Numbered from the stretch's first letter, positions 2,639-24,442 are shown. The stretch is DNA of 64,000 nt from Neisseriales bacterium (GCA_016699915.1 CP064990.1:512671-576670); one strand, 5' to 3'. Numbers and translations are program-made. The notes: generated from the letters alone by a model not told the origin.

Positions 2639-3003
2639 TGGTGGAGGCGGCGGGAATTGAACCCGCGTCCGAAAGTCCTCTACAGTGAGTTCTACATACT
2701 TAGCCATTTCTTTTGTTTTTAACTTTCATTACGCCGAATTGGCAGGCTTAATGTTAGCGAGTTACCTTGCGTTTTACCTTTAATCAAGTAACCCGATTAA
2801 AGGCGAGCTGATGTGATATGACGCTACAGTGGTGTAACCCACCCGATCCACCAGCCTATCGTTGTAGCGTCTAGCGCGATTAAGCGGCTAGAGCGTAGTT
2901 TTCGTCGTTTGCGACTATAATTTTTCAGTGTTTTACGGGATAACTGAAATCCCGGTATGCACCCATCTGCTTTGCAACCCCCGTCGAAACCAAGGTCGCC
3001 CCC
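2639..3003 (-). ncRNA. ssrA: tmRNA (SsrA), tag reading frame ANDENYALAA*
   Basis: Reverse strand starts GGGGGCGACCTTGGTTTCGACGGGGGTTGC and ends GGGTTCAATTCCCGCCGCCTCCACCA. Internal resume frame GCA AAC GAC GAA AAC TAC GCT CTA GCC GCT TAA. Confidence 0.95.
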
Positions 3004-6430: not shown

Positions 6431-6563
6431 AGTCTAAGTTAAGAATGAATAATCCGTTTATATTGTAAGGGCTATACCAATTAAAACATCGTCAGTGCAG
6501 TAAAAATAGTGTAAGTTCTATTCGCTGACATCATGAATGAACCACCATTGAAAGGGATTTGAT

Positions 6564-7322
6564 TTGGACAATACGAAACTTATTTATGGTTTTCACGCAA
6601 TCAATTTACATTTGCAGCATCATCCCGATGACATCCAAATGTTGTGGATCAAAGAAAACCGTTGTGATAAGCGCGTTCAGCAGCTTTCAGATCGCGCTTT
6701 GCAATATAAAATAGCGATTCAGATCGCACCAACTGCAACATTAGATGCCCTAACCCATCATGCTCATCACCAAGGCGTGGTAGCAAAAGTATTGCATCGT
6801 CACTTAGCGTTGAGTTTGGATGAAATGTTATCTGATCTTCACGATGAAGCTTTACTAGTTGTTTTAGATGGCGTTACGGATCCACATAATCTCGGCGCTT
6901 GTCTACGTGTTGCCGACGCAATGGGCGTTGATGCCATTATTGCCCCAAAAGATCGTTCCGCCAAAATCACAGCTGCCGTGGCAAAAGTAGCTTGTGGTGC
7001 TGCCGAATCAGTACCTTACATTCTTGTAACGAATCTAGCGCGCACCTTGCAAGCTCTCAAAAAGCAAAACTTTAAAGTTGTTGGTTTATCAGAGGAAGGA
7101 TCTTTGCCTTTATTTCAATGCGATGCTCGTTCATCCATTGCATGGGTATTGGGTGCAGAAGGAACAGGACTGCGCCAATTAACCAAAAGATACTGCGACG
7201 AATTCGTTCGCTTACCCATGTTGGGTATTGTCGAGAGCCTGAATGTTTCAGTATGTGCAGGTATTGTATTGGCTGAATCACGCCGTCAGCGCGAATATAC
7301 CAAGCCAGTATCTAAAAAATAA
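6564..7322 (+). CDS. rlmB: 23S rRNA (guanosine-2'-O)-methyltransferase RlmB (SpoU/TrmH family)
   Basis: 252 aa. N-terminal IYGFHAI substrate-binding domain and SpoU motifs (LDGVTDPHNLGACLR, VLGAEGTGLR, ESLNVSVCAGI). TTG start in the track. Confidence 0.85.
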   Translation: MDNTKLIYGFHAINLHLQHHPDDIQMLWIKENRCDKRVQQLSDRALQYKIAIQIAPTATLDALTHHAHHQGVVAKVLHRHLALSLDEMLSDLHDEALLVVLDGVTDPHNLGACLRVADAMGVDAIIAPKDRSAKITAAVAKVACGAAESVPYILVTNLARTLQALKKQNFKVVGLSEEGSLPLFQCDARSSIAWVLGAEGTGLRQLTKRYCDEFVRLPMLGIVESLNVSVCAGIVLAESRRQREYTKPVSKK

Positions 7323-7487
7323 TGCATCCTAATTGCTAGGTCTATTGATAAGTAATTGAAGTAATAGGTAGTTTTTAATCAAAGTACCATATTGGCAGAA
7401 TCCGTATTTTGCTATAGAATTACCAGCCTGAAAGAACCTTGGCTCTTTTAACGCAGAAAAGAGCTAATTTAGCCAAAAGGAATCCTC

Positions 7488-7973
7488 ATGCGCTATTATG
7501 AAATCGTATTGATTGTTCATCCTGATCGGTCAGAACAAATCCCGAATATGCTCAAACGCTATCAAGGACTGATCACTGAAAAAAACGGCATCGTTCATCG
7601 CTTGGAAGACTGGGGGCGTCGTCCGCTTGCTTATCCAATCCGTAAAATACATAAGGGTCACTACATTCTGATGAACATCGCTTGTGTCGCTGATATCTTG
7701 TCAGAATTGGAACATACTTTTAAATTCAATGATGCCATTCTCAGACATCTGATTATTAAAACGAAGCAAGCTATTACCGAACCTTCGGTGATGTTTAATG
7801 GTTCTGAAAAAGTTAAAAACTTGCTCGCTCCGGAAGAGAAAATGGCGCATACGCAAACAACTGATGCGGTTGATGAAAACCTTGCTAAGGATGATGACGT
7901 ATCACTTCAAACCCCTCAATCTGAACACTTAACAGCAACTGAAGAAAACAATACTAAAGGGATTGATGCATAA
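7488..7973 (+). CDS. rpsF: 30S ribosomal protein S6 (with long acidic C-terminal extension)
   Basis: [17 protein letters not shown]...[12 protein letters not shown]; first gene of the rpsF-priB-rpsR-rplI operon. Confidence 0.95.
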
Positions 7974-8259
7974 TTTTTTACGATTATCGGGTAGCATTAC
8001 ACAAGAAGAACCATTGCGTTATACCCCAGCTGGTGTTGCAATTTTGCAAGTGTGGCTAACGCATCATTCTGAGCAGCAACAAGCAGGAGGAACAAGAAAA
8101 ACAGATTGCGTTATCCAAGCTGTTTTAACTGGGCAAGACGCTAAAAAATTTACAGGACAACTCATTGACAAGCAGATTGAGGCAGAAGGATTCTTAGCAA
8201 AACGCAGCTTTCTGAACCCAAGACTTGTTTTTCATATTCAACAATTTAAATTGATTTAG
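7966..8259 (+). CDS. priB: Primosomal replication protein N (PriB, SSB-fold)
   Basis: Position between rpsF and rps[32 protein letters not shown]...FHIQQFKLI parallels E. coli PriB. ATG at 7966 (track begins at TTG 7963); overlaps the rpsF stop. Confidence 0.8.
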
Positions 8260-8271
8260 GGTACTGATGAT

Positions 8272-8505
8272 ATGGCTCAACCACTATTCAAACGTAAACG
8301 GTTTTGTCGTTTTACAGCGGAAGGTATTAAATCGGTTGATTACAAAGCAATTGATCTTTTAAAAGATTTCATTGCAGAAAATGGCAAAATTATTCCATCT
8401 CGGATTACGGGCACTAAAGCATACTATCAACGTCAACTGTCGACCGCTATTAAAAGAGCGCGTTTTTTAGCGCTTTTGCCCTATACCGATCAACATAAAC
8501 AATAG
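8272..8505 (+). CDS. rpsR: 30S ribosomal protein S18
   Basis: [38 protein letters not shown]...[13 protein letters not shown]. Confidence 0.95.
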
Positions 8506-8515
8506 GGTCCATGTC

Positions 8516-8965
8516 ATGCAAATTATCTTAATGGAAGACATTGCTAGGCTCGGTCGTTTAGGAGATATTGTTAAAGTCAAAGATGGCTTTGCGCGAAACT
8601 TTTTGATCCCACAAAAAAAAGCGAAGCGTGTGACCGAAGCCAATCTTGCTGAATTTAAAGCGCGACGCGATGAACTTGAGAAACAACAAGCAGCCATATT
8701 GGAAGCAGCAAAAGTTCATTTTGAAAAACTCCATGGCGCCGTATTAAGTTTGCCTCAAAAAGCTGGCGTAGAGGGTAAATTATTCGGTTCTGTTACCGCC
8801 AGCGATATTGCTAAGGCGGTGAGCACTTATGGTGTACCCGTTTTAAAAGAGGCTGTCAAACTACCTCATGGTGCTATCAAAATGCTTGGGGAATATACAG
8901 CAAAAATTACGCTGCATCATGAGGTCATCGCCGATATTACCTTGCGTGTTATAGCCGAAAGCTAG
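8516..8965 (+). CDS. rplI: 50S ribosomal protein L9
   Basis: MQIILMEDIARLGRLGDIVKVKDGFARNFLIPQKKA. Confidence 0.95.
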   Translation: MQIILMEDIARLGRLGDIVKVKDGFARNFLIPQKKAKRVTEANLAEFKARRDELEKQQAAILEAAKVHFEKLHGAVLSLPQKAGVEGKLFGSVTASDIAKAVSTYGVPVLKEAVKLPHGAIKMLGEYTAKITLHHEVIADITLRVIAES

Positions 8966-8983
8966 CAAAATAAGTGACGTGCG

Positions 8984-9691
8984 CTAATCCCCTGCTTTGC
9001 ATAGCGACGAGTGGCGAAGTGTTAAGTGTCCTTTTTCTAATTGATAGATGCGCTGCATCCGCTTTGCTAACTGCTTATCATGCGTCGCCACAATAATGCT
9101 TGTATTGGTTCGCTCGTTTAACGATAACAGTAAATCAATGATGTGTCTTGCATTGTCGTAATCTAAATTACCCGTTGGTTCATCTGCTAATATGCAAAGT
9201 GGTTCGGTAACCATGGCTCGCGCAATCGCAACGCGTTGGCGCTCACCTCCTGATAGAGCGCTGGGTTTATGTTGTATTCGATGCTGTAAACCAACTTTTT
9301 CCAATATAGCATGGGCTCGTGTTTCGGCTTCTTGCCATGTTATTCTTCTAATTAATAATGGCATGGCTGTATTTTCTAAAGCTGTCAATTCAGGCAATAA
9401 GTGATGAAACTGATAAATGAATCCCAACATGCGATTACGTAAATAACCTATTGCTTTTTCTGAAAGCGTTGATAAAGCTGTCTGATCAACCCACACTTCC
9501 CCGCAGCTTGGCCGATCTAACCCACCTAATAAGTGCAATAATGTACTTTTTCCAGAGCCAGAAGGCCCTGTGATCGCTACACATTCACCCGATGCGACGG
9601 ATAATGCAACCTTGGCAAAAACTTCGACATAGGTGGCACCACGGCCATAATTTTTGCTAAGGTTACTGCAATGTAAAACGGTTTTATTCAT
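8984..9691 (-). CDS. lolD: Lipoprotein-releasing system ATP-binding protein LolD
   Basis: Walker [12 protein letters not shown], signature [14 protein letters not shown], Walker [12 protein letters not shown]. Start placed at ATG 9691 ([16 protein letters not shown]), overlapping the upstream permease stop in an ATGAATAA junction. The track ORF extends to 9727. Confidence 0.85.
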
Positions 9692-10934
9692 AACGTAAAG
9701 CTTCAGAAGGCTGAGTATGTGCTGCACTTAAACTCGGATAAAGTGTTGCCAAAAAGGTTAATGTTAGCGATAGCGTAAGAATCACGGCAATATCGCTTAA
9801 CTGAATTTGGCAAGGCAGATAATTTATTAAATAAATATCACCTTGGATAAGTTTGGTACCTGATATCCATTCAATCCATTGCCCAATTTTGCCAATATGC
9901 AATGCTGCCATTACTCCAAGCAATACACCTAATAGTGTACCCAATATCCCTGTTACCATACCTTGAATAATAAAGATATACATGATGCTACGTGGTGTAG
10001 CACCAAGTGTGCGCAAAATGGCAATATCTGAACGCTTATCATTTACCATCATATATAACGTTGAAACAAGCCCAAAGGCAGCAACTAGAATCATGATTGA
10101 TAAAACAATTAACATCATCCGTTTTTCGATTTGCACAGCACGAAAATAATGACTATGTTGTTCGGTCCAATCCGTTACTGATTTTAATTTTGACGACAGT
10201 GAGCTTTTCAGTAAATCGGTTTTGACTTGCGGTGCTTGCATAGGGTTAAGGAGTCGCAATCGAATGCCAGAAATGGAGCGACCCAAGTGATACAAGGTTT
10301 GCGCATCGGTTAAGTGAATAGCCACGACGGCACGGTCATATTCTACAACACGGGTACGAAAAAGAGAGACCACTTTAAATTGTTTAAAATGCGGTATCAC
10401 ACCAAATGGGGTCATGTTACCCGCTGGCACAACCACCATAACAAAATCTCCCACCTTCACTTTAAGTGTAGTGGCTAACGCTTTACTCAATGCCATGCCA
10501 AATTGACCAGATTGAAGTGCTTCAAAATTGCCTTGTGTTACTTGCCAGCCTTGATCTAATACCTTTTTTTCAAAAACCGGATCAATACCTCTGATCATGA
10601 CATGTTGTAGTGTGTCGCCTTGAGACAATAAGGCCTGGCCACTGACAAAAGGAGCAGCTGCTGCCACATTTGGTATTATTTTAAGTTGCTTGATCGTATC
10701 GGGCCAACGCGAACTTGCGTATTCACTTAGTTCAATATGTGAAGCTGTACTGAGCAGATATGACCTAATTTCTTTTTGAAACCCATTCATTACAGAAAGC
10801 ACGATAATCAGAGAAGCCACTCCTAAACAAATAGTTAGCGTCGTAATTGAAGCAATGACAGAAATGAAACCATAACGAAAGCGTGGACGCAAATAACGCA
10901 GCCCAATTTTCCACTCAAATGGTAGATTTATCAT
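9684..10934 (-). CDS. Lipoprotein-releasing system transmembrane protein (LolC/E family; single permease, LolF-like arrangement)
   Basis: 416 aa. N-terminus FEWKIGLRYLRPR, FtsX-type C-terminal TM bundle, directly coupled to lolD. Confidence 0.8.
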   Translation of the reverse strand: MINLPFEWKIGLRYLRPRFRYGFISVIASITTLTICLGVASLIIVLSVMNGFQKEIRSYLLSTASHIELSEYASSRWPDTIKQLKIIPNVAAAAPFVSGQALLSQGDTLQHVMIRGIDPVFEKKVLDQGWQVTQGNFEALQSGQFGMALSKALATTLKVKVGDFVMVVVPAGNMTPFGVIPHFKQFKVVSLFRTRVVEYDRAVVAIHLTDAQTLYHLGRSISGIRLRLLNPMQAPQVKTDLLKSSLSSKLKSVTDWTEQHSHYFRAVQIEKRMMLIVLSIMILVAAFGLVSTLYMMVNDKRSDIAILRTLGATPRSIMYIFIIQGMVTGILGTLLGVLLGVMAALHIGKIGQWIEWISGTKLIQGDIYLINYLPCQIQLSDIAVILTLSLTLTFLATLYPSLSAAHTQPSEALRYE

Positions 10935-11160
10935 GATTGCCAGTCGTAGGACGGTAGGGATTTTTTAAGTTGTGGATTCGGTCAAGTAAAAACTTGCGAA
11001 TTTGTGTTTCATCACAGCCCATGAGTAAAGCGTCCTCAAAAACATCTTGGGCGCTTTGAATCAGTTCTTCTAAGTTTTCACGCATGACCTTAATTTTCTC
11101 AATACATGATAAGGGTTGGCCGAGTGAGTCGTGCCATATAGGAAAAGTATTATCTGGCAT
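10915..11160 (-). CDS. Hypothetical 81 aa protein (no family recognised)
   Basis: ORF sits between NlpC/P60 (13 nt upstream gap) and the Lol permease (20 nt overlap), on the same strand. Predicted helical and acidic. Only positional support. Confidence 0.4.
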   Translation of the reverse strand: MPDNTFPIWHDSLGQPLSCIEKIKVMRENLEELIQSAQDVFEDALLMGCDETQIRKFLLDRIHNLKNPYRPTTGNHDKSTI

Positions 11161-11173
11161 TTATATTACCTTT

Positions 11174-11689
11174 TTATGATTCATTATTTTTGGTTTTGAC
11201 CACTCGCCTTGCACTGTTATAACGCTTCGCCCAATACGATGATTTGATATTGCTAATTTCAATATATTTACCTGTGCGCGGCGCGTGGACAAATTTATCA
11301 TCTCCTAGGTATAGCCCGACGTGCGAATTTCTACCACGCCTTGTATTAAAAAACACAAGATCACCTGGTTTTAATTCCTTTAACGTGACTAGTACGCCGA
11401 TACGCGCTTGCTCTGCTGCAGTACGGGGCATACTCAAATTCAGGGATTGCTTGAAAATATATTGAATAAATCCGCTACAATCTAAACCTCGAATTGGGTT
11501 AGAGCCACCAAATTTGTACGCGACACCAATTAGGGTCATGGCTTGCAACAAAAGCTCATCTACCGCTGTACTTTGTGCTAATTCAGATTCAGTGGCCGTA
11601 TCCGCACTCGCTGGGGAGGTAAACACTAGACCCATTACATTGCAAAAACTAGCCAAAATTATGATAAAAAAACGGCACTTTAAAATCAT
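11174..11689 (-). CDS. Secreted NlpC/P60 (C40) cell-wall peptidase
   Basis: Signal peptide ending SPASA. Catalytic Cys context GLDCSGFIQYIF and His context NSHVGLYLGDDKFVHAP. Confidence 0.85.
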   Translation of the reverse strand: MILKCRFFIIILASFCNVMGLVFTSPASADTATESELAQSTAVDELLLQAMTLIGVAYKFGGSNPIRGLDCSGFIQYIFKQSLNLSMPRTAAEQARIGVLVTLKELKPGDLVFFNTRRGRNSHVGLYLGDDKFVHAPRTGKYIEISNIKSSYWAKRYNSARRVVKTKNNES

Positions 11690-11704
11690 CAGACATACAC
11701 ACAG

Positions 11705-11736
11705 ATAAATAGGTTAGATGATAAATAGGTTAGATG
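11705..11736. repeat. Perfect tandem 2 x 16 bp repeat (ATAAATAGGTTAGATG) just upstream of the NlpC/P60 start; duplicated at 19121-19152
   Basis: Read directly: ataaataggttagatg ataaataggttagatg, followed by the degenerate atgaatag. Confidence 0.9.
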
Positions 11737-11783
11737 ATGAATAGTTCAGGGAAATTATATACCCAAAAATTCTAAAAACTGAC

Positions 11784-11802
11784 TAGCTAACTAGATTAGC
11801 TA
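11784..11802. promoter_or_regulatory. 19 bp perfect palindrome TAGCTAA-CTAGA-TTAGCTA in the divergent NlpC/P60-autotransporter control region (candidate operator); second copy 19199-19217
   Basis: Seen in sequence: 7 bp arms with a 5 bp centre. No known regulator motif assigned. Confidence 0.25.
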
Positions 11803-12112
11803 AGGATAAGCTTACGCAAAACCTCTAAAATTAAAGAAAAATAAAATCATACTGGCGGTACAATCTTTCTCATTTTGAAGCGCTCTGCTAATATATTTTA
11901 TGCCCTACCCTATAACAATGCTGTCTAATATAAACTATGTTAATCTGTTTCTAGGTGGCTTTAATACTGGATTCCATACGATCTTACAACTAGTAACGAT
12001 TAAGAATAATTAAGAAAGGAAGAAAAGATATTTTCAATATTTGAATAAAAATTATTGACAAATACGCACACTGAACAATTTTAGTGTATCGTGGCAACAT
12101 ATTTTTTCATAA

Positions 12113-14590
12113 ATGCTCAACATGCAGAAAATTTATTCTTTTGTTAAGCATCTTTTTTTGATATTTTTTGTTCTCCAATTACTCATTAATTTGGGCGGTT
12201 GCGCCTCTACTGGTGGCGGGGAGACAAAAAAAGGAAATTATACACCTCCTCCACCTACAGAAGAACCTGCACCTACAGAAGAACCTGCACCTCCTCCACC
12301 TACAGGACCTAATCAAACTGTTGATATGGATTTTGATGGTTTACAAGACAAGCTGGATCCCAAACCCAATGACACCGACAATGATGGCGCCACCAATGAT
12401 CAAGATGAAGATGATGACAATGATGGGATAGAAGATGACGATGAAAGCATCAACAAACAATATGACACGGACAATGATGGCATCAGAAATGATACGGATC
12501 CGGATGATGACAATGATGGTTTAAATGAAGCCGAAGGGGGATATCCTGATGCTCAAGGTGATCGGAAGCCCTATGACACCGACAATGATGGCAAAACCAA
12601 TGATCAAGATCCTGATGATGACGATGATGGGATAGTGGATGCTAATGATGGTGATCCGTTACATCCGCTCGAAAAAGGTCCAAAAGTGGATACGGATTTC
12701 GATGGTTTAGTAGATGACCAAGACACCATGGATAATGACACCGACAATGATGGCACCACCAATGATGAAGATGAAGATGATGACAATGATGGCTTTGAAG
12801 ACGAGGATGAGGGCGTGGATTGGTTTATCGAAGCCTTATCTGTTGAACAACAATATGCTTATACCTTTGACACGGACAATGATGGCATCAGAAATGATAC
12901 GGATCTAGATGATGATGCCGATGGTTTAAATGAAGCCCCAGGAGGTTTTCTTGATCCTCAAGGTGATCGGAAGCCCAATGACACCGACAATGATGGCGCC
13001 ACCAATGATCAAGATGAAGATGATGACAATGATGGGATAGAAGATGACGATGAAAGCATCAACAAACAATATGACACGGACAATGATGGCATCAGAAATG
13101 ATACGGATCCGGATGATGACAATGATGGTTTAAATGAAGCCGAAGGGGGATATCCTGATGCTCAAGGTGATCGGAAGCCCTATGACACCGACAATGATGG
13201 TATCAGAAATGATGAAGATGAAGATGATGACAATGATGGGATAGAAGATGACGATGAAAGCATCAACAAACAATATGACACGGACAATGATGGCATCAGA
13301 AATGATACGGATCTAGATGATGATGCCGATGGTTTAAATGAAGCCCCAGGAGGTTTTCTTGATCCTCAAGGTGATCCCAAACCCAATGACACCGACAATG
13401 ATGGCGCCACCAATGATCAAGATGAAGATGATGACAATGATGGGATAGAAGATGACGATGATGATCAACCATTAGATCCAAATAATCCTCATAAGTTAGC
13501 TTATCTTCTCGACAAGGACTTGCAATCGAATCAATCAGAAGCACCATTGACCGATACCGATGGTGATGGCCTTATGGATTCAAAAGATCCTTTACCAAAA
13601 ATTCATCAAGGGGTAGTGAAAGCAGCAACCTATTTAGCTCATCGAGAATTAACTCTCAAGGTTTTTAACTACGATGTCCAACAAGTTTTAACTCAAATAC
13701 CTGATAACAACAAACCTACTTGGGGAACTTGGATGCAAATCCAAAAATTGGGTGCAACGCAATCTATTCAAGCGACTCAAGAACAAGCGGATGCTGATAC
13801 ACAATACCATATTGTTTCAACCAATTATGGTGGCTGGATGACTCAATGGGGTATCAATACGATCCAACGCCAAGACACGACCCTCTACCATGTGGGTTTA
13901 ACAGCTGGCTTAATGCAAGCAACCCTTATTGCTGATGATCATCATCCAGCTTCGATCACCACAATAACCAAAGGTTTTGCTTTGGGTGGTTATGGTTTTT
14001 ATAAAGGTACCCAAGGTGAAATCGCTTTCAGTCTTCAAAAAGGTTGGTTTGATCATCAACAAGATGTAGCCTATCAAAGCAGTACCCTCATCAGTCATAT
14101 CAAAGCTACTTATGCTTTACACACTTGGGGCGCATTAACCTTCAGCCCAACTTTGGATATTACTTATCGCTTTAATACGGATAATCTGAATGAAACAACG
14201 ACAGAAAATCAATCCATGTATGAAGGGATATTGGGTCTTCGTGTATCCAGCGTTTGGGGTAGATTGGCTCCCTTCATAACGGTTGATTATAAATTGGGGG
14301 CATCGGATGATCTAAAGGTGACTCAAGATGATGCCAAACAAACTACTTTTACTCTCAAAACCCAACCAATACCTATTCATTTTGGCCTACAAGGTGGATT
14401 GACTTATACTCCCAATCATCAATGGAATCTACAAAGTCAATTAAGTTATCGAGACAAAACACTGAATGTAGACTGTCAATTAAACTATCAGCTTCATGAA
14501 GCGCTTAGTCTAAGTGCTAGCTTGCATGAAACCTTTTTGAAGACAGACGTTGATGTTAAAGGAGAAGTGGGATTAAGATGGGGGTGGTGA
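12113..14590 (+). CDS. Lipoprotein-type autotransporter with a thrombospondin-type-3-like Ca-binding repeat passenger (long allele, 825 aa)
   Basis: N-terminus MLNMQKIYSFVKHLFLIFFVLQLLINLGGC (h-region plus LGGC lipobox-like site), then Pro-rich linker PPPPTEEPAPTEEPAPPPPTG. About 400 aa of DxDxDGxxNDxD units follow (DTDNDGIRNDTDPDDDNDG...). The C-terminal ~285 aa has alternating beta-strand character and ends GEVGLRWGW (aromatic terminal motif of an OM beta-barrel). Confidence 0.7.
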   Translation: MLNMQKIYSFVKHLFLIFFVLQLLINLGGCASTGGGETKKGNYTPPPPTEEPAPTEEPAPPPPTGPNQTVDMDFDGLQDKLDPKPNDTDNDGATNDQDEDDDNDGIEDDDESINKQYDTDNDGIRNDTDPDDDNDGLNEAEGGYPDAQGDRKPYDTDNDGKTNDQDPDDDDDGIVDANDGDPLHPLEKGPKVDTDFDGLVDDQDTMDNDTDNDGTTNDEDEDDDNDGFEDEDEGVDWFIEALSVEQQYAYTFDTDNDGIRNDTDLDDDADGLNEAPGGFLDPQGDRKPNDTDNDGATNDQDEDDDNDGIEDDDESINKQYDTDNDGIRNDTDPDDDNDGLNEAEGGYPDAQGDRKPYDTDNDGIRNDEDEDDDNDGIEDDDESINKQYDTDNDGIRNDTDLDDDADGLNEAPGGFLDPQGDPKPNDTDNDGATNDQDEDDDNDGIEDDDDDQPLDPNNPHKLAYLLDKDLQSNQSEAPLTDTDGDGLMDSKDPLPKIHQGVVKAATYLAHRELTLKVFNYDVQQVLTQIPDNNKPTWGTWMQIQKLGATQSIQATQEQADADTQYHIVSTNYGGWMTQWGINTIQRQDTTLYHVGLTAGLMQATLIADDHHPASITTITKGFALGGYGFYKGTQGEIAFSLQKGWFDHQQDVAYQSSTLISHIKATYALHTWGALTFSPTLDITYRFNTDNLNETTTENQSMYEGILGLRVSSVWGRLAPFITVDYKLGASDDLKVTQDDAKQTTFTLKTQPIPIHFGLQGGLTYTPNHQWNLQSQLSYRDKTLNVDCQLNYQLHEALSLSASLHETFLKTDVDVKGEVGLRWGW
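12320..13590 (+). repeat. In-frame mosaic array of TSP3-like repeat codons with long perfect internal duplications
   Basis: 12365-12591 is identical to 12974-13200 (227 bp, offset 609 bp). The GATGAAGATGATGACAATGATGGGATAGAAGATGACGATGA block recurs at about 12404, 13013, 13216 and 13421. Confidence 0.9.
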
Positions 14591-14731
14591 TTATTGTTGG
14601 GGCGTGCAATAAGTTGGGTGGACTCACTAACTATTTTTGTACACATGCAACGTCGACTTAATCATAGCCTTCTCGTTGTACCTATCACTACAAACAGTGA
14701 CTTCCTTCAAAAGATAAAACTACTATTTGGA

Positions 14732-14805
14732 TGGTGCCGCTAACTAGAATCGAACTAGTGATTATTGATTACGAATCAACCGTTATACCACTTAACTATA
14801 GCGGC
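14732..14805 (-). tRNA. tRNA-Thr (anticodon CGT)
   Basis: Reverse strand GCCGCTATAGTTAAGTGGTATAACGGTTGATTCGTAATCAATAATCACTAGTTCGATTCTAGTTAGCGGCACCA; loop TTCGTAA. Confidence 0.9.
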
Positions 14806-14831
14806 TCTAAAGCACTTAATTTTATACCTCA

Positions 14832-14908
<77 letters not shown>

Positions 14909-15119
14909 TTGGCTTAGCCAAACCCAAGCGATTATCTATGAAAATAATAATGTGAGCAACTATTCGTGTCTGCCAAGTAATATACTGCTCAATCATCCAA
15001 TTGATTAGTTTATCTAAACAAAATAAGGTATATAAACTACAACAAAATAAATCAGATGATATGAATTCAGAATTATAATTATGCATCGCCTTTAATTTAT
15101 GTGAGGTTTGAGATACTCC

Positions 15120-15689
15120 GTGAGCATTAAATCAGACCAGTGGATACGTCGCATGGCCATCGAAAAAGATATGATTGCCCCTTTTGAATCAAAGCAAATC
15201 AAGATTGTTGATGGCAAAAGGATTATCTCATATGGCACATCTAGTTATGGTTATGATATCCGTTGTGCCGATGAATTTAAGGTATTCACTAATATCAATA
15301 ACTCTATTGTTGACCCTAAAAACTTTGATCCGCAATCATTTATTGAAATTTCGGGCAAAGGATACTGCCTGATCCCTCCCAATTCTTTTGCCTTAGCAAG
15401 GACATTAGAATATTTTAAGATCCCGCGCAATATTCTCACTATTTGTGTAGGTAAATCAACTTATGCTCGCTGCGGCATTATTGTCAACGTTACCCCATTT
15501 GAGCCAGAATGGGAAGGTTATGTTACGTTAGAATTTTCTAATACCACGCCCTTGCCTGCTAAAATCTACGCCAATGAAGGGGTAGCCCAAGTATTATTTT
15601 TTGAGTCCGACGAAATTTGCGATACTTCCTATAAAGATCGACAAGGAAAATATATGGGTCAGCAAGGGGTAACACTACCTAAAACTTAA
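15120..15689 (+). CDS. dcd: dCTP deaminase
   Basis: [12 protein letters not shown]...YGYDIRC...[26 protein letters not shown]. Start set at GTG 15120 by analogy to the MSIKSD N-termini of homologues. The track ORF begins at TTG 15108. Confidence 0.9.
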
Positions 15690-15730
15690 GTCCAAACTAT
15701 TATTATGTAGTCAGCTATACAATTTTAGGT

Positions 15731-16330
15731 TTAGGCAGCAATGTCACTTTTTCCTCTGGGCAACCACTTGACAACCTGTGGCGGATGATAGTGTTCTAAA
15801 GCCATCAATAGCTCTTCTGGTGTTGAATGGGAAATAAGTAAATCGCTATGTTTTTTGCGCATAAAGCCTGCTGCAATATTGGCTTGAAGCAAAGACAAAA
15901 GCGGATCAAAAAAACCGTTGACATTTAGCACGCCACAAGGCTTCTGATGCAGTCCAATCTGAGACCAAGATAATATTTCAAATAATTCTTCAAAAGTCCC
16001 TAATCCACCAGGTAATGCAATAAAGGCATCAGATAAAGCCATCATACGCGCTTTACGCTCATGCATGTTGGCAACAATTTCTAACTGAGATAGCTTAGGA
16101 TGCGCCTGTTCTTTATCAACCAATATATGAGGTATAACACCTGTTATGTGCCCGCTTAGCTCAATTACTGTATCCGCCATTACACCCATTAACCCAATTT
16201 TTCCACCACCATAAACTAGCTTACGTTGGCTTTGAACAAGTGTGCGAGCAAGCGCTTTAGCGGCCATTTCATAAGCAATATCCACCCCATGATTAGAACC
16301 ACAAAATACACAAATTGTTTGCAATTTCAT
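15731..16330 (-). CDS. LOG family protein (TIGR00730; cytokinin riboside 5'-monophosphate phosphoribohydrolase-like)
   Basis: VYGGGKIGLMG and the LPGGLGTFEELFE (PGGxGTxxE) motifs. Confidence 0.8.
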   Translation of the reverse strand: MKLQTICVFCGSNHGVDIAYEMAAKALARTLVQSQRKLVYGGGKIGLMGVMADTVIELSGHITGVIPHILVDKEQAHPKLSQLEIVANMHERKARMMALSDAFIALPGGLGTFEELFEILSWSQIGLHQKPCGVLNVNGFFDPLLSLLQANIAAGFMRKKHSDLLISHSTPEELLMALEHYHPPQVVKWLPRGKSDIAA

Positions 16331-16514
16331 ATGTTGTGATCACCTTAAAAAGAGGAGCACATTGTATTGCATTTTACGTGCTAACATGGCGATACTGACA
16401 AGATAGCTATGAGTTTTATTGAAAAGTAGGCCTTTCTAAACAAATTTGAGTTAAGAATCAAAAATAAAGTTATGCTAGAATAAACAAATTAAATTTAATT
16501 TGGGGAGTGTGCCC

Positions 16515-17039
16515 GTGCTAGCACCAGAAATGATCCAACGTTTAAATAACCAAATCAATTTGGAGTTTTATTCTTCTAATCTTTATTTGCAGATGAGTGC
16601 TTGGGTAGCTGATAGAGGGTTTACGGGATCCGCTTTCTTCTTGGGTAAGCATGCAGCGGAAGAATTAACACATATGCAACGCTTGTTTAGCTATGTGAGT
16701 GAAACGGGAGGTTTACCCATCATTGGTGCAATTGCAGCACCTCCTAGTCAATTTTCATCGCTTACCGAAGTATTTCAGCAAACGCTTGCACATGAAAAAA
16801 TGATCACCACTCAAATTAATGAATTAGTACACACTGCAATGGCGATGAAAGACTACTCTACCTTTAATTTTTTGCAGTGGTATGTTAGTGAACAGCATGA
16901 AGAAGAAAAACTCTTCCGGGGTATCTTAGATAAGATTGAAATGATCGGTCAAGACAATAAATCATTCTTTTTGGTGGATAAAGAAATCCAAAATATGGCA
17001 AGAATTGGTGTCGTAGCTAATGCTGCGCCCCATGGATGA
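16515..17039 (+). CDS. ftnA: Non-heme ferritin
   Basis: (M)[29 protein letters not shown] parallels E. coli FtnA [21 protein letters not shown]. GTG 16515 lies 7 nt after GGGGAG. The track begins at TTG 16500. Confidence 0.85.
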
Positions 17040-17056
17040 TTTACTAAACTTGATAT

Positions 17057-17133
17057 GGCGAATTAGCTCAGTTGGTTAGAGCGACGGAATCATAATCCGC
17101 AGGTCCGGGGTTCAAGTCCCTGATTCGCCACCA
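17057..17133 (+). tRNA. tRNA-Met (anticodon CAT, elongator type; tRNA-Ile2/lysidine not excluded)
   Basis: GGCGAATTAGCTCAGTTGGTTAGAGCGACGGAATCATAATCCGCAGGTCCGGGGTTCAAGTCCCTGATTCGCCACCA. The G1-C72 pair argues against an initiator. Confidence 0.85.
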
Positions 17134-17268
17134 TAGCGTAAATCTTCAATTTAATATTTTTTTAATTACAAAGTAACTTGATTGATGATGTACTGGTAGC
17201 TTAATGGACTGAAATCTAGACAAAATCAGTCACCTTAATTCTAACAAAATAGAGAGATTAGCATAGAC

Positions 17269-18651
17269 ATGAAAAAACAGTCTGTTCCCGCACAAGAATC
17301 TTCTTTACACAGAGGGCTTGCCAATCGACATGTCCAAATGATTGCAATTAGTGGCGTTATTGGCACAGGTTTATTCTTGGGTGCCGGCAAAACAATCAGT
17401 CTTGCTGGTCCATCTATTATCTTCGTTTATGCAATCATTGGTTTTATTTTATATTTTGTAATACGTGCTATGGGCGAAATACTTCTATCCAACTTACAGT
17501 ATAAGTCCTTCCTTGATTTTATTGATGATATTTTAGGTCCAATGTGGGGGTTTTTTGCAGGGTGGACCTACTTATTCAGCTGGACCGTAACAGTGATAGC
17601 TGAAATTATTGCTGTTGCTGGCTTTATGCAATTTTGGTTTCCAGAAACCCCTGCTTGGATTCCAGCGCTTACTTGTACTTTAGTGCTAATGGGGATGAAT
17701 TTGACCACCGTTAAACTATTCGGTGAAACAGGATTTTGGTTCGCTCTGATCAAAGTGGTTGCCATATGTGCTTTAATTGTGATTGGGTTAGGTTTTATTG
17801 TTACAAGCTTTGAATCATCTGCAGGTATAGCCTCATTTAGTCATATTTGGAATCATGGTGGATTTTTCCCAAAAGGGATATTTGGATTTCTTGCGGGATT
17901 CCAAATTGCGATATTTACATTTAACGGAATTGAGCTACTGGGTACAACTGCTGCCGAGACATCCGAACCGACCAAAACACTTCCAAACGCAATTAATACT
18001 GTGCTGTGGAAAATAGTCTTTTTATATATAGTTACACTAGCTGTCATTATGAGTGTAACACCTTGGAACATGATCTCATCTAGCAAGAGTCCGTTTGTAG
18101 GCATGTTTATGCTCATCGGTTTTCCTGCAGCCGCTGGTATCATCAATTTTGTCGTACTAACAGCCGCTGCCTCAGTGGGTAATAGCGGGATCTTTTCAGC
18201 TAGTCGAATGCTCTATGGTTTAGCGGAAAAAGGGGATACACCACAATTATTTAGAAAATTATCTCGTCGTGCAGTGCCAGCTAATAGCATTTATATCATG
18301 AGTATTTGTACGTTAGGTAGTGCTGTTTTAATGTTGTACTTTATCCCTAATGTGATGGAAGCTTTTACTGTGGCAACTTCTTTAACAGCCATCCTGATTA
18401 TGTGCGTCTGGTCTATTATTGCTTACACTTATATTGTTTACCGTAAGAAACGGCCAGAATTGCACGAACAATCTATTTATAAGATGCCGTGGGGCATTCC
18501 TATGTCTTGGATTGCAATTGGATTTTTTATTTGCATGGCTGTTTCATTGGCTTTTAAAGAAGACACACGTATTGCATTGGAATTTGTGCCATTCTGGTTT
18601 ATTTTCTTAGCCATCATCTGTAGCGTTCTTCAGAAAAATAAAACCAAATAA
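17269..18651 (+). CDS. Amino acid permease (APC superfamily, AAT family; CycA/AroP/ProY-like)
   Basis: 460 aa, about 12 TM. N-terminal signature LHRGLANRHVQMIAISGVIGTGLFLGAG. Confidence 0.85.
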   Translation: MKKQSVPAQESSLHRGLANRHVQMIAISGVIGTGLFLGAGKTISLAGPSIIFVYAIIGFILYFVIRAMGEILLSNLQYKSFLDFIDDILGPMWGFFAGWTYLFSWTVTVIAEIIAVAGFMQFWFPETPAWIPALTCTLVLMGMNLTTVKLFGETGFWFALIKVVAICALIVIGLGFIVTSFESSAGIASFSHIWNHGGFFPKGIFGFLAGFQIAIFTFNGIELLGTTAAETSEPTKTLPNAINTVLWKIVFLYIVTLAVIMSVTPWNMISSSKSPFVGMFMLIGFPAAAGIINFVVLTAAASVGNSGIFSASRMLYGLAEKGDTPQLFRKLSRRAVPANSIYIMSICTLGSAVLMLYFIPNVMEAFTVATSLTAILIMCVWSIIAYTYIVYRKKRPELHEQSIYKMPWGIPMSWIAIGFFICMAVSLAFKEDTRIALEFVPFWFIFLAIICSVLQKNKTK

Positions 18652-18669
18652 GTATTTTGGTATCCAAAA

Positions 18670-18705
18670 CAGCAAAAATCAGTTACTGGTTTTTGCTGTT
18701 TTTTT
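18670..18705 (+). terminator. Rho-independent terminator of the permease gene
   Basis: CAGCAAAAA-tcagttactgg-TTTTTGCTG followed by TTTTTTT. Confidence 0.75.
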
Positions 18706-18817
18706 ATGATGAATTGTTGTTTGATCTGGAAAATGTCATGTTAGTTTTTATGGACATATTCTCGGAGAACATAGATCTCAATCAATAAAGCATTTGCCGA
18801 ATTCTAGCGACTGATGG

Positions 18818-19105
18818 TCAATCAAAATCTGCTGCAGTACGGGGCATACTCAAATTCAGGGATTGCTTGAAAATATATTGAATAAATCCGCTACAATCTA
18901 AACCTCGAATTGGGTTAGAGCCACCAAATTTGTACGCGACACCAATTAGGGTCATGGCTTGCAACAAAAGCTCATCTACCGCTGTACTTTGTGCTAATTC
19001 AGATTCAGTGGCCGTATCCGCACTCGCTGGCGAGGTAAACACTAGACCCATTACATTGCAAAAACTAGCCAAAATTATGATAAAAAAACGGCACTTTAAA
19101 ATCAT
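18818..19105 (-). pseudogene. 5' fragment of the NlpC/P60 peptidase gene (duplicate; first 91 codons identical to 11174-11689 product, then DFD*)
   Basis: The ORF translation is identical through ...LNLSMPRTAA. It stops before the catalytic His and keeps the signal peptide and Cys motif. The duplication boundary is at 18828. Confidence 0.9.
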
Positions 19106-21007
19106 CAGACATACACACAGATAAATAGGTTAGATGATAAATAGGTTAGATGATGAATAGTTCAGGGAAATTATATACCCAAAAATTCTAAAACTGACTA
19201 GCTAACTAGATTAGCTAAGGATAAGCTTACGCAAAACCTCTAAAATTAAAGAAAAATAAAATCATACTGGCGGTATAATTTTTCTTATTTTGAAGCGTTC
19301 TGCTAATATATTTTATGTTTTATTTTATAACAATGCTGTCTAATATAAACTATGTTAATCTGTTTCTAGGTGGCTTTAATACTGGATTCCATACGATCTT
19401 ACAACTAGTAACGATTAAGAATAATTAAGAAAGGAAGAAAAGATATTTTCAATATTTGAATAAAAATTATTGACAAATACGCACACTGAACAATTTTAGT
19501 GTATCGTGGCAACATATTTTTTCATAAATGCTCAACATGCAGAAAATTTATTCTTTTGTTAAGCATCTTTTTTGATATTTTTTGTTCTCCAATTACTCAT
19601 TAATTTGGGCGGTTGCGCCTCTACTGGTGGCGGGGAGACAAAAAAAGGAAATTATACACCTCCTCCACCTACAGAAGAACCTGCACCTACAGAAGAACCT
19701 GCACCTCCTCCACCTACAGGACCTAATCAAACTGTTGATATGGATTTTGATGGTTTACAAGACAAGCTGGATCCCAAACCCAATGACACCGACAATGATG
19801 GCGCCACCAATGATCAAGATGAAGATGATGACAATGATGGGATAGAAGATGACGATGATGATCAACCATTAGATCCAAATAATCCTCATAAGTTAGCTTA
19901 TCTTCTCGACAAGGACTTGCAATCGAATCAATCAGAAGCACCATTGACCGATACCGATGGTGATGGCCTTATGGATTCAAAAGATCCTTTACCAAAAATT
20001 CATCAAGGGGTAGTGAAAGCAGCAACCTATTTAGCTCATCGAGAATTAACTCTCAAGGTTTTTAACTACGATGTCCAACAAGTTTTAACTCAAATACCTG
20101 ATAACAACAAACCTACTTGGGGAACTTGGATGCAAATCCAAAAATTGGGTGCAACGCAATCTATTCAAGCGACTCAAGAACAAGCGGATGCTGATACACA
20201 ATACCATATTGTTTCAACCAATTATGGTGGCTGGATGACTCAATGGGGTATCAATACGATCCAACGCCAAGACACGACCCTCTACCATGTGGGTTTAACA
20301 GCTGGCTTAATGCAAGCAACCCTTATTGCTGATGATCATCATCCAGCTTCGATCACCACAATAACCAAAGGTTTTGCTTTGGGTGGTTATGGTTTTTATA
20401 AAGGTACCCAAGGTGAAATCGCTTTCAGTCTTCAAAAAGGTTGGTTTGATCATCAACAAGATGTAGCCTATCAAAGCAGTACCCTCATCAGTCATATCAA
20501 AGCTACTTATGCTTTACACACTTGGGGCGCATTAACCTTCAGCCCAACTTTGGATATTACTTATCGCTTTAATACGGATAATCTGAATGAAACAACGACA
20601 GAAAATCAATCCATGTATGAAGGGATATTGGGTCTTCGTGTATCCAGCGTTTGGGGTAGATTGGCTCCCTTCATAACGGTTGATTATAAATTGGGGGCAT
20701 CGGATGATCTAAAGGTGACTCAAGATGATGCCAAACAAACTACTTTTACTCTCAAAACCCAACCAATACCTATTCATTTTGGCCTACAAGGTGGATTGAC
20801 TTATACTCCCAATCATCAATGGAATCTACAAAGTCAATTAAGTTATCGAGACAAAACACTGAATGTAGACTGTCAATTAAACTATCAGCTTCATGAAGCG
20901 CTTAGTCTAAGTGCTAGCTTGCATGAAACCTTTTTGAAGACAGACGTTGATGTTAAAGGAGAAGTGGGATTAAGATGGGGGTGGTGATTATTGTTGGGGC
21001 GTGCAAT
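18828..21007 (+). repeat. Copy B (2180 bp) of the segmental duplication (partner 11412-14610)
   Basis: See copy A. 3199 - 2180 = 1019 bp, which is the 1017 bp repeat-array indel plus two 1-nt homopolymer indels. Confidence 0.95.
19528..20987 (+). pseudogene. Second autotransporter allele (short repeat array), frameshifted at a T6 tract after codon 15; residual ORF 19572-20987 (471 aa) from TTG
   Basis: ATG 19528 reads MLNMQKIYSFVKHLF then TGA (19573-19575), because T6 (19568-19573) replaces T7 (12153-12159). Downstream protein is 100 percent identical to the long allele except for the 339 aa array difference. Confidence 0.75.
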
Positions 21008-21093
21008 TTGATAGTGTTTGTCAAGCTCTTATAATATATTCTGATTTAGATACTGATGGTATGGATAGTTAAAGGCTTTGCTTATGTGCCTAC

Positions 21094-21846
21094 TTACTTG
21101 CTAGCTTGATGCACAGTAAGACCAGCATAAGTTTGACAAATAGGCATCATTTGTAGGACATTGATATTGACATGTTTAGGTAGTGCGCAAACCCAATAAA
21201 CTGCCTCGGCAATATCTTCAGCAGTAAGCGGTTGCGTCTTATCATAAAGCGCTTTGGCTTTTGTCTTATCACCACGGAATCGAACAATAGAAAACTCTGT
21301 ATTTCCACTAAATCCAGGCTCAATATTCGTTACACGTATCGGAGTACCCAATAAATCAATGCGCAAATTATTACTCAATTGATGCACAAAAGCTTTACTG
21401 GCTCCGTACACATTACCGCCACGATAAGGCCACTCCCCAGCTACCGAACCAAGATTGATAATGTGGCCATTTGAGCGCTTTAGCATCCCTTGTAACACAA
21501 GGTATGTACAGTAAAGCAATCCCTTAATATTGGTGTTAACCATTACTTCCCATTCATCAAGTACACAATCTGCAAAGGTTTCCGTACCAATAGCAAGTCC
21601 AGCGTTATTAATTAAAACATCTATTTTTGAAAAGCGATCAGGTAAAGAAGATAGGGCATTTTCTGTAGCAATACGATCTGCTACGTCAAAATTTAGCGTA
21701 TAGCATGGCTTACCCAGCAATGATTGTAGATCATTCAATCTATTTTGGCGTCGACCTGTTGCAATAACAAAGTGCCCTTCTTTTACAAAGCGTTTAGCAA
21801 TCGCCTCCCCAAAACCAGAAGTAGCACCTGTTACCAAAACAATCAT
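21094..21846 (-). CDS. SDR family NADP-dependent oxidoreductase (YdfG-like 3-hydroxy acid dehydrogenase)
   Basis: MIVLVTGATSGFGEAIAKRF (TGxxxGxG), NNAG, YGASKAFV (YxxxK). Confidence 0.85.
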   Translation of the reverse strand: MIVLVTGATSGFGEAIAKRFVKEGHFVIATGRRQNRLNDLQSLLGKPCYTLNFDVADRIATENALSSLPDRFSKIDVLINNAGLAIGTETFADCVLDEWEVMVNTNIKGLLYCTYLVLQGMLKRSNGHIINLGSVAGEWPYRGGNVYGASKAFVHQLSNNLRIDLLGTPIRVTNIEPGFSGNTEFSIVRFRGDKTKAKALYDKTQPLTAEDIAEAVYWVCALPKHVNINVLQMMPICQTYAGLTVHQASK

Positions 21847-22063: not shown

Positions 22064-24442
22064 TTATTTTTGCTCCACCTGATATCTGATGCTGTGTTGC
22101 AGTTTTTTAGTTGTTTTTTTATTAACATCTGGCTCCAAAAGTGCTTTGGCGACAACCACGGTATTTTCTTGAGCAACGGATAGATTTGTTTTTTTCGGAA
22201 GGGGCGTACGCGTTTTTTTTACCATTTTGGCTTCAAAAATGGGTACAGATTTTTCAGGTATTTGAACCGGCTCTTGAGGATCTAACAAGGCATCACTTGA
22301 AGTGGTTGGCTTAATCACTGCAGAGGTTGGGCGTTTAGCTTGTCTAGCTTGACGAGAATAATGACGTGGTTTGACAGTTTTATTATCTTCGTGGCTATTA
22401 ACAACGTTAATAGATGCGTCAATTTTTGGTACTGATATAGGTTGTATATTGTTTTCTGTGACGCTAATTGGACGATTCGTTAACTGATCTGAGTTTTGAT
22501 CTTGATGAGGCAGCAAATGCGTAACAACCTCTTTTTTTAGACGGTTTTCGCTGGCCACATATTTTTGTTGTGTTTGGTCAGCGGATTGTTTTAGAGCATG
22601 CTGTGTATCCGATGCATAGTTTTGTTCTTCCCTTCTTTGATGTCCAACACGCTGGTTTTTTCGACCTTTACGGTGATATACGGATTGCGATCTTAAAGCA
22701 CGATGATGGTTTTGAGCGATATGCACAGCTGGTTTCTTTTTAAAGAGAGATGAAAATGTACCGCTTAAGCTCTCTAAAAAGCGCGATGCGATACGAGCAA
22801 TCCACGTAGTAGTTAATTGAGCTGGTAGTTGCTCCCTTGTAATACCCTTAACGGCCGCTTCAAGTGGTTTGACATTGGCTAATTCATCATTTATACGACC
22901 TTCTGCTTGCGGCATTTCAACCATTTTATAGCTTGGGTTATCACCAATTTCGCTGTTCTCATCAATACGTGTTCTATCAATTTTATAATGAGGTGTTTCA
23001 AGATGAATATTGGGCACTAGAATAATATTAACTCCAAGGCGATCTTCTAAATTATGTAGTTCGGCGCGCTTTTCATTGAGTAGGAAAGTAGCCACTTCAA
23101 CAGGTACTTGTGCACGAACCATGTTAGTATGATCCTTTGCCGCTTCTTCTTGTAAGATACGTAAAATATGTAAAGCCGAAGACTCAATACCTCTAATAAA
23201 ACCGATGCCAAAACAACGCGGACAAGTAATATGATTGGTCTCACCTAAACTAGGTTTTAGTCGTTGTCGAGATAACTCTAGTAAACCAAAACGGGATAAT
23301 CGACCAAGCTGAATACGAGCACGATCTTGATGAATAGCGTCTTGTAATGCAGATTCAATCATCCTTTGATTCTTGATGTTTTCCATATCAATAAAATCAA
23401 TGATCACAAGCCCACCTAAATCACGTAACCGTAACTGGCGAGCAATCTCTTCCACTGCTTCGAGATTAGTTTTAAAGGCAGTCTCTTCAATATCAGCGCC
23501 TTTTGTAGAGCGCGCAGAATTAACATCAATTGATACTAAAGCCTCGGTATGGTCAATAACAATAGCTCCACCAGAAGGAAGTTGCACATTACGTGAGAAC
23601 GCTGTTTCGATTTGATGTTCAATTTGAAAACGAGAAAATAAAGGCACATCATCTTGGTACAGTTTGATGCGATTTTTATAATTAGGCATCACATATTCCA
23701 TGAATTGTTTAGCTTGATCATAAATTGCTTGTGTATCAATCAACAATTCACCGATATCTGGCTGAAAATAATCGCGAATCGCGCGAATAACAAGGCTACT
23801 TTCTAAAAAAATCAGAGCTGGCCCCTTTACTGCTTGAATTTTACTTTCGATTTGCTTGCTTTCTCCCCAAGCTGATTGATCAATTGCTGACCAAAGCTGT
23901 AGTAAATAACTCAAGTCCCATTTTAGCTCTTCTAGTGAACGACCAATACCTGCCGTTCTTGCAATAAGACTCATCCCTTTCGGGACGTCGAGTTTGAGCA
24001 TTAACTCTTTTAGAATCTGCCGACTTTCACCTTCGGCTCGGCGTGATACACCACCACCTCGTGGGTTGTTAGGCATCAGCACAATATAACGACCTGCTAA
24101 ACTAATATAAGTCGTTAAAGCCGCTCCTTTATGACCGCGCTCATCCTTATCAACCTGTACCAATACCTCCAAACCTTCATGGAGCGCTTCTTGAATACGT
24201 GCATGTGAATGATATCGCAAGGCAATTTCTTTGAAAGGCAAAAAACCGTGTCGATCACTACCATAGTCTACAAAACAAGCCTCTAAAGAAGGCTCAACAC
24301 GCGTAATAATACCTTTATAAATATTACCCTTTCGTTGCTCGCTACCCGCTGTTTCAATATCAAAATTAACTAGTTTTTGGCCATCCACTATAGCTACTCG
24401 CAGCTCTTCAACTTGTGTAGCATTAAACAGCATTCGTTTCAT
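22064..24442 (-). CDS. rne: Ribonuclease E
   Basis: MKRMLFNATQVEELRVAIVDGQKL, S1 domain, DNase I-like catalytic core (IDVNSARST, DFIDM), Zn-link CPRCxGxG, basic low-complexity C-terminal half. Confidence 0.95.
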   Translation of the reverse strand: MKRMLFNATQVEELRVAIVDGQKLVNFDIETAGSEQRKGNIYKGIITRVEPSLEACFVDYGSDRHGFLPFKEIALRYHSHARIQEALHEGLEVLVQVDKDERGHKGAALTTYISLAGRYIVLMPNNPRGGGVSRRAEGESRQILKELMLKLDVPKGMSLIARTAGIGRSLEELKWDLSYLLQLWSAIDQSAWGESKQIESKIQAVKGPALIFLESSLVIRAIRDYFQPDIGELLIDTQAIYDQAKQFMEYVMPNYKNRIKLYQDDVPLFSRFQIEHQIETAFSRNVQLPSGGAIVIDHTEALVSIDVNSARSTKGADIEETAFKTNLEAVEEIARQLRLRDLGGLVIIDFIDMENIKNQRMIESALQDAIHQDRARIQLGRLSRFGLLELSRQRLKPSLGETNHITCPRCFGIGFIRGIESSALHILRILQEEAAKDHTNMVRAQVPVEVATFLLNEKRAELHNLEDRLGVNIILVPNIHLETPHYKIDRTRIDENSEIGDNPSYKMVEMPQAEGRINDELANVKPLEAAVKGITREQLPAQLTTTWIARIASRFLESLSGTFSSLFKKKPAVHIAQNHHRALRSQSVYHRKGRKNQRVGHQRREEQNYASDTQHALKQSADQTQQKYVASENRLKKEVVTHLLPHQDQNSDQLTNRPISVTENNIQPISVPKIDASINVVNSHEDNKTVKPRHYSRQARQAKRPTSAVIKPTTSSDALLDPQEPVQIPEKSVPIFEAKMVKKTRTPLPKKTNLSVAQENTVVVAKALLEPDVNKKTTKKLQHSIRYQVEQK

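Follow-up and report, generated by a model that had tools for sequence, protein, structure and literature searches.

Recent duplication of a rare predicted surface-protein gene around a conserved tRNA-dcd-ferritin block in an uncultured Neisseriales bacterium

The 64,000-nt stretch of Neisseriales bacterium DNA analyzed here (GCA_016699915.1, CP064990.1:512671-576670; referred to as the window) carries two near-identical direct repeats, A (11412-14610; 3199 bp) and B (18828-21007; 2180 bp). Between them lies a 4.2-kb unit, U, with three tRNA genes and the genes dcd, LOG, ferritin and permease. This layout raises the question of which part is the newcomer, the unit or one of the repeats. An initial annotation of the sequence had read it as the product expected from Campbell-type integration of a circle or from a resolved tandem duplication. 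We find that the duplication is real and recent, that it is of an ordinary kind, and that it concerns a rare surface-protein gene. Most likely, the gene was copied by a dispersed copy-and-paste event within the core chromosome, with the source beside nlpC and the target in the spacer between the permease gene and ydfG, 4.2 kb downstream.

Repeats A and B and the position of unit U in relatives

Repeat search and global alignment confirmed, base for base, the differences between A and B that the initial annotation had listed. Blocks 11412-11773 and 18828-19189 match except for G/C at 11615/19031, a change that is synonymous in nlpC (Ser25, TCC versus TCG). Block 11775-12152 corresponds to 19190-19567 with 10 mismatches, and 12154-12355 and 13373-14610 correspond to 19568-19769 and 19770-21007, respectively, with none. 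In addition, there are two 1-nt gaps (A5 versus A4 in the A run at 11774-11778; T7 versus T6 at 12153-12159 and 19568-19573), and 1017 bp (12356-13372) are extra in A and form an in-frame indel relative to B. The boundaries were also as annotated. The left edge of A lies inside the NlpC/P60 gene (11174-11689, minus strand), leaving in B a 5' nlpC fragment of 92 codons (ORF 18818-19105), and the right edge lies 20 bp past the stop codon (14588-14590) of a gene encoding a repeat protein. No third copy of the repeat was found within the 64-kb window. The content of U held as well, since tRNA scan and family matches agreed on the three tRNAs, dcd, LOG, ferritin and permease (Table 1).

In the nearest relatives found, the permease is 72-74% identical to that of the window. 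The gene order in one relative (L084/L085) is mfd-spoU-rpsF-priB-rpsR-rplI-lolD-lolE-small ORF-nlpC-methyltransferase gene-tRNA-Thr(cgt)-tRNA-Pro(cgg)-dcd-LOG-ferritin-tRNA-Met-permease-ydfG. This locus is collinear with window positions 5910-11572, 14731-18703 and 21089-21846 and lacks the repeats; nucleotide identity is 67-77% where protein is encoded and 90% across the two tRNA genes. In L084 and in a second relative, L087, only a spacer of 63-73 bp with a terminator hairpin separates permease from ydfG. Between nlpC and tRNA-Thr, L084 (5930-7384) has a TRAM/tRNA-U5-methyltransferase gene (RlmD/TrmA-like), whereas the window (11690-14731) has the repeat-protein gene; comparison with L084 revealed no remnant of the methyltransferase gene in the window. 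A LOG scan of genome contigs returned distant species only, with at most 56% identity among the matches listed.

Since U and its flanks are collinear in L084/L085, and permease abuts ydfG in L084 and L087, gene order indicates that U is ancestral backbone with its ancestral neighbors on both sides, not a passenger or a mobile unit, and that B is a derived insertion in the permease-ydfG spacer. Furthermore, B carries a piece of nlpC, a gene that is ancestral only at the left site, which argues that B was copied from the A arrangement. The synteny comparison proposed in the initial annotation therefore places U between nlpC and ydfG before the duplication. The tRNA genes at the left edge of U, to which a role had been assigned, stand at the same place in L084/L085 and appear to be ancestral neighbors rather than an attachment site.

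Origin and age of copy B

Two junctions of the arrangement, 18827/18828 and 21007/21008, are novel; both belong to one target site, and there is a single U. The copied segment would run from nlpC, of which it includes the first 278 bp, through the 423-bp divergent promoter region to a point 20 bp past the stop codon of the repeat-protein gene, which it contains in full. At neither junction did the ends of the segment show any homology or microhomology to the target. Mobile-element genes (IS, integrase) were not found among the annotated ORFs of the window, all of which are housekeeping. Because the junctions lack such homology and neither a recombinase nor an IS is close by, the insertion would have been illegitimate, by end joining of a DNA fragment or by a template switch during replication. 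Known dialects of the neisserial DNA uptake sequence (DUS) occur 0 times in the 64-kb window, so that nothing ties the locus to DUS-mediated transformation. The outer flanks of B share a 9-bp direct repeat, ACTGATGGT; as a candidate target-site duplication it was rejected, since 10% of shuffles gave an equal result.

Two other routes to the same layout had been suggested. A 7416-bp tandem duplication of A and U with later deletion of the second U agrees with the junction between the end of U and the start of A (18827/18828), which is the expected tandem product. However, a simple tandem duplication leaves one novel junction and two are observed, so that a second event is needed, the right end of which must coincide exactly with the original boundary between U and the right flank (R). 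The ends of A and U share no homology to drive such a deletion, whereas one insertion accounts for both junctions at one target site. We consider the tandem route unlikely. Campbell-type integration of a circle with U and a copy of A, possibly targeted to a tRNA gene, would fit the A-U-B layout, the direct repeats and the tRNA genes at one edge of U, but it is contradicted by the collinear U in L084/L085. There, at about 75% identity and without repeats, the three tRNA genes and four protein genes of U have the same outer neighbors. DNA bracketed in a tRNA-associated island is absent in relatives and accompanied by integration functions; here, it is present in relatives, the window ORFs include no integrase, and no plasmid or phage similarity of the segment was found. 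Integration of a circle is thus extremely improbable.

An assembly artefact, with two strain variants of a single-copy gene placed at two sites, would be in line with the source, a metagenome-assembled genome (MAG), and with the A/B differences, which are typical of strain alleles (repeat number, homopolymer length, promoter patch). However, the U/B junction is also present in the short-read contig L001 (Logan DRR274965), which is 99.95% identical to the window over 14862-19064, spans 18827/18828 and has the B-type C at 19031. The fusion between the truncated nlpC (nlpC') and the spacer behind permease is thus not confined to one assembly. Moreover, the flanking genes checked are intact, the contig is reported to be 912 kb long, and a misjoin would not give a clean nlpC break together with 2.2 kb of collinear sequence. 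We regard an artefact as very unlikely, and a dispersed duplication as the preferred explanation.

Further data bear on the reliability of the sequence. The permease is 100% identical to the NCBI entry "MAG: amino acid permease [Neisseriales bacterium]," and the window otherwise encodes core housekeeping functions (mfd, ribosomal proteins, lolDE, rne, secA, dnaB, dnaE, pheST, thrS and others). It contains 422 homopolymers of at least 5 nt, yet none of the neighboring ORFs checked resemble split-gene halves. This argues for an assembly that is accurate at homopolymers, and the A5/A4 and T7/T6 differences are therefore probably real. The A/U and B/R junctions have no outside match, because exact-protein look-ups gave nothing beyond L001: NlpC, ferritin, YdfG, LolE, the NlpC' fragment and P0001 (a barrel relative, see below) had no match, and dcd matched L001 only.

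Outside the C/T cluster described below, a single substitution separates A from B over 2130 aligned bases. Between the DRR274965 strain and the window, 2 of 4203 bases are different, and that strain already has the U/B junction. Together, these values suggest that the duplication dates back about as far as the divergence of the only two strains sampled. Of the two explanations offered earlier for the near-zero divergence, a recent event is supported (1/2130), and ongoing gene conversion is not needed.

The repeat protein and the state of its second copy

The 825-aa product of copy A has a hydrophobic signal with a lipobox-like LINLGGC, a Pro-rich linker, 23 DxDxDG motifs and a C-terminal region of about 300 aa, which is predicted to be a beta-barrel and terminates with GLRWGW. 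It thus has the N-terminal Sec signal (LINLGGC) and the C-terminal aromatic residue (...GLRWGW) of type Va autotransporters. Pfam and NCBIfam searches of the protein gave no match even at E≤10, including PF03797 and TSP_3, and comparison of the barrel with PDB sequences by phmmer and profile search gave nothing relevant. The passenger matched 870 proteins at E≤1e-5 (down to 3e-65). Among the best 120 of these, coverage of the query was at most 52%, most proteins had PF02412 (TSP_3) or PF18884 (TSP3_bac) in their precomputed Pfam annotation, besides other modules, a few had OmpA-type outer-membrane protein barrels, none had an autotransporter domain, and none covered the C-terminal half of the repeat protein.

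In an exhaustive search, the barrel domain had 6 relatives among 1.84 billion representatives; a word-index homologue search and a genome-contig scan revealed no relative. One of the six, P0001, shows single-base deletions in A5 runs compared to the window, which suggests an error-prone assembly, and it was left unused. An AlphaFold model of the barrel, based on a 5-sequence alignment, had medium confidence (pLDDT 63, pTM 0.57) and contained one helix (domain residues 28-49) followed by about 13-16 strand segments; in classical type Va autotransporters, the barrel has 12 strands, and an alpha-helical linker ahead of it fills the pore. The top Foldseek matches were the translocators of EspP, AIDA-I, BrkA, Hbp and NalP (E 1e-5 to 3e-4, TM 0.3-0.5), with OmpG, FadL and TonB-dependent receptor barrels scoring similarly. 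"Autotransporter-like by architecture and predicted fold" is thus a fair description at the level of the model. Of the "autotransporter" label in the initial annotation, the predicted likeness in fold stands at medium confidence, and family membership found no Pfam or NCBIfam match.

A metagenome scan with a barrel profile revealed one locus, L089 (JGI 3300027970, contig Ga0247837_1000674, 8226-10891); in a second such scan, a 28-mer taken from the gene's 5' end had no exact match. The L089 homologue has TSP3 repeats and the same barrel (37% identity). It stems from the same metagenome as L085, where it occupies another site, following a PBP1A gene and near the contig end. Its signal peptide is ordinary (AFA/ES), without a lipobox. 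The gene has two frameshifts, one at an A8 run just past the signal peptide, where A7 restores the frame, and one within the repeats that is not at a homopolymer. These data point to a rare, unannotated family of predicted outer-membrane barrels fused to TSP3 calcium-binding repeats.

After its insertion, copy B would have diverged by lesions that mostly disable it. The 1017-bp indel is flanked by 89-bp perfect direct repeats (12356-12444 and 13373-13461), and the deletion in B is in register: the entire array with a period of 204 bp is gone, and the number of motifs is 4 instead of 23. Homologous recombination within the 89-bp repeat would have deleted the TSP3 array in this way. Loss of one base from the T7 run in the signal-peptide codons would explain the T6 of B, with which translation ends at codon 16 (MLNMQKIYSFVKHLF-stop); the T7 of A is in frame. 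The sole downstream start in B is a TTG, and the resulting signal peptide lacks a charged N-region. As sequenced, copy B is probably off, either switched off or decaying, and A would be the expressed allele.

A different view of the present state, compatible with the same duplication origin, is a two-allele contingency system, in which selection keeps both copies, slippage of the 5' T run switches each of them, and recombination varies the passenger length. Such a pair would resemble the phase-variable neisserial autotransporters and the multicopy opa genes. Indeed, the length of a coding tract toggles the frame, as in phase variation by simple sequence repeats, and it is precisely the signal-peptide codons that contain the T7/T6 difference. 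Furthermore, the repeat number varies between the copies via in-register recombination, and L089, the only homologue with context, is also out of frame at a 5' homopolymer, which hints at phase variation in this family; the tracts compared are T7 and T6 of the two copies and A8 of the frameshifted homologue. According to PMC3723659, NalP and MspA of Neisseria meningitidis phase vary by homopolymeric tracts in the coding sequence. Against a contingency system, the passenger of copy B is essentially all lost, and the second frameshift of L089, off a homopolymer, looks like decay. Moreover, T7 is below the tract length usually needed for appreciable switching. Because of this second frameshift and the short T run, we rank a silent or decaying duplicate above a maintained contingency pair, which is conceivable and somewhat unlikely.

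Even as a silent or decaying allele, B might be reactivated by a +1 slip of the T run or exchange sequence with A by recombination. Near-identical direct repeats are substrates for RecA-dependent deletion or amplification, and the recombination potential of the A/B pair suggested in the initial annotation is plausible. Recombination between A and B would delete U and, with it, the dcd, LOG, ferritin and permease genes and three tRNA genes. Selection probably acts against this loss, so that the arrangement would remain stable.

The upstream region of B would have been altered too, by the A5/A4 change and by a strand-coordinated burst of ten C-to-T changes. Comparison of 11861-11910 with 19276-19325 showed that 10 of the 14 plus-strand C residues of A are T in B, while none of the 5 G residues is changed. 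The sequence contexts are mixed, and both CCC runs are fully converted. Relative to the ATG of the repeat-protein gene, the cluster is 200-250 bp upstream, and relative to that of nlpC, 170-220 bp upstream; the only promoter-like site that it overlaps is weak. When scanned for promoters and terminators, the intergenic region did no better than shuffled sequences, and folding of the cluster region revealed no hairpin exposing the mutated C residues.

Ordinary divergence would not give ten changes of the same type on the same strand in one patch. The natural reading of the pattern is a burst of single-strand cytosine deamination in B or, alternatively, of A-to-G changes in A on the opposite strand. 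Possible causes of deamination are a resected or displaced single strand during the illegitimate insertion, or a bacterial DNA deaminase. That an enzymatic or single-strand-specific deamination burst was tied to the duplication event itself seems improbable to us; if true, bacteria would have an equivalent of kataegis or repeat-induced point mutation, here acting on a duplicated promoter. Copy B of the DRR274965 strain has a deletion of ~305 bp (L001 4150-4235; window 19065 to ~19369), by which the nlpC' start codon, the upstream region and the C/T cluster site are lost, and 158 bp next to the repeat-protein ATG are retained. In a weaker version, both strains could have independently destroyed the same upstream stretch of copy B, here by a hypermutated patch and in DRR274965 by the deletion, expression of the truncated nlpC' being harmful. 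Just upstream of nlpC (11704-11750), about 2.5 tandem copies of the 16-bp sequence GATAAATAGGTTAGAT are present, identical in A and B; these units could be a regulator-binding site.

Several points weigh against the account favored here. The source is a MAG of an uncultured bacterium, outside support exists for one of the two novel junctions only (18827/18828), and the Logan run DRR274965 may stem from the same study as the MAG. The direction of the C/T cluster and of the A5/A4 change is not polarized by an outgroup. The T7 run is shorter than accepted phase-variable tracts, which makes an off switch and a pseudogene indistinguishable. Finally, about 121 bp to the left of B (18707-18827) and 86 bp to its right (21008-21093), together ~207 bp, are without an equivalent in the relatives' spacer and had no match elsewhere in the window or in the retrieved loci. 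Because of these flanks, a larger piece may have been inserted, or the donor may have been another strain and not the resident A copy.

The main value of the analysis is that it corrects a misreading: the tRNA-dcd-LOG-ferritin-permease block is conserved backbone bracketed by a young gene duplicate. The locus offers a cleanly dated case of how surface-protein genes may duplicate without a mobile element and of how a new copy may diverge or die by repeat collapse, homopolymer frameshift and promoter change. A rare unannotated barrel family and an unexplained deamination-like cluster surfaced as well. To a specialist, the locus holds little surprise.

Table 1. Features of the duplicated region and of unit U (window coordinates)
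Feature	Position	Strand	Remark
NlpC/P60 peptidoglycan endopeptidase gene, intact, 171 aa	11174-11689	-	Pfam PF00877, E 2e-31; collinear with L084 nlpC
Repeat A, apparent source copy at ancestral nlpC site	11412-14610	+	Repeat search, alignment
nlpC 5' 278 bp, part within repeat A	11412-11689	-	
Divergent intergenic/promoter region, 423 bp, A5 run and C-rich version of the cluster	11690-12112		Copy in B 19106-19527
Copy-A repeat-protein gene, 825 aa	12113-14590	+	
T7 run in signal-peptide codons, in frame	12153-12159	+	T6 in B, 19568-19573
TSP3 repeat array segment, 1017 bp = 339 codons, A only	12356-13372	+	
Unit U, apparent ancestral backbone between A and B	14611-18827		Same gene order in L084
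tRNA-Thr(cgt)	14732-14805	-	
tRNA-Pro(cgg)	14832-14908	-	
dcd	15120-15689		Gene call on L001; longest ORF 15108-15689
LOG	15731-16330	-	
Ferritin	16500-17039		
tRNA-Met	17057-17133		
CycA-like amino-acid permease	17269-18651		
Truncated nlpC' ORF	18818-19105	-	92 nlpC codons and 3 new codons
Repeat B, 2180 bp, apparent derived insertion in permease-ydfG spacer	18828-21007	+	
Copy-B gene start	19528-19575	+	ATG, then stop after 15 codons (MLNMQKIYSFVKHLF-stop)
Remaining copy-B reading frame, 471 aa from internal TTG	19572-20987	+	4 DxDxDG motifs and full C-terminal barrel
ydfG-like short-chain dehydrogenase, ancestral right neighbor of permease	21094-21846	-	

Some features of the window lie outside this region. 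The GC content is ~40%. RNase E (22064-24442; 792 aa) and PheT (53014-55035; 673 aa) are short compared to typical proteobacterial versions, which may reflect a streamlined genome. A tmRNA gene (2639-3003) with the tag peptide ANDENYALAA adjoins tRNA-Ser(cga).

Relation to known systems

The phase-variable type Va autotransporters of Neisseria (NalP/AspA, MspA, AutA/AutB) also consist of a signal peptide, a passenger and a C-terminal outer-membrane barrel, the last being predicted in our case. NalP is a lipoprotein, and the lipobox-like signal of the repeat protein suggests a likeness in this respect. In contrast to these proteins, the repeat protein has no match to the Autotransporter Pfam family or to the sequence of a solved structure, its passenger is a TSP3 calcium-binding array rather than a protease or beta-helix, and its homopolymeric run is only T7. 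A further likeness is that, in the neisserial proteins too, the frame of translation depends on a homopolymer in the 5' part of the coding sequence (PMC3723659). With the bacterial TSP3 proteins (PF02412/PF18884), the window protein shares the DxDxDGxxDxxD pattern, which recurs 23 times; it differs from them by the missing Pfam TSP_3 match and by its rare C-terminal barrel.

The locus also resembles the opa loci and pilE-pilS, where near-identical, dispersed copies of genes for outer-membrane proteins give scope for exchange. As with opa, one copy is in frame and one is out of frame, by a repeat in the signal-peptide codons. However, only two copies are seen here, B keeps its own promoter and start codon and is not a promoterless cassette, and conversion tracts between A and B are not in evidence. 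Finally, as in RecA-amplifiable segments between IS or rrn repeats, near-perfect direct repeats of 2.2 kb bracket 4.2 kb of DNA. Here, though, the repeats are a gene duplicate, the bracketed DNA is conserved housekeeping backbone, the loss of which is likely costly, and no state with another copy number was seen.

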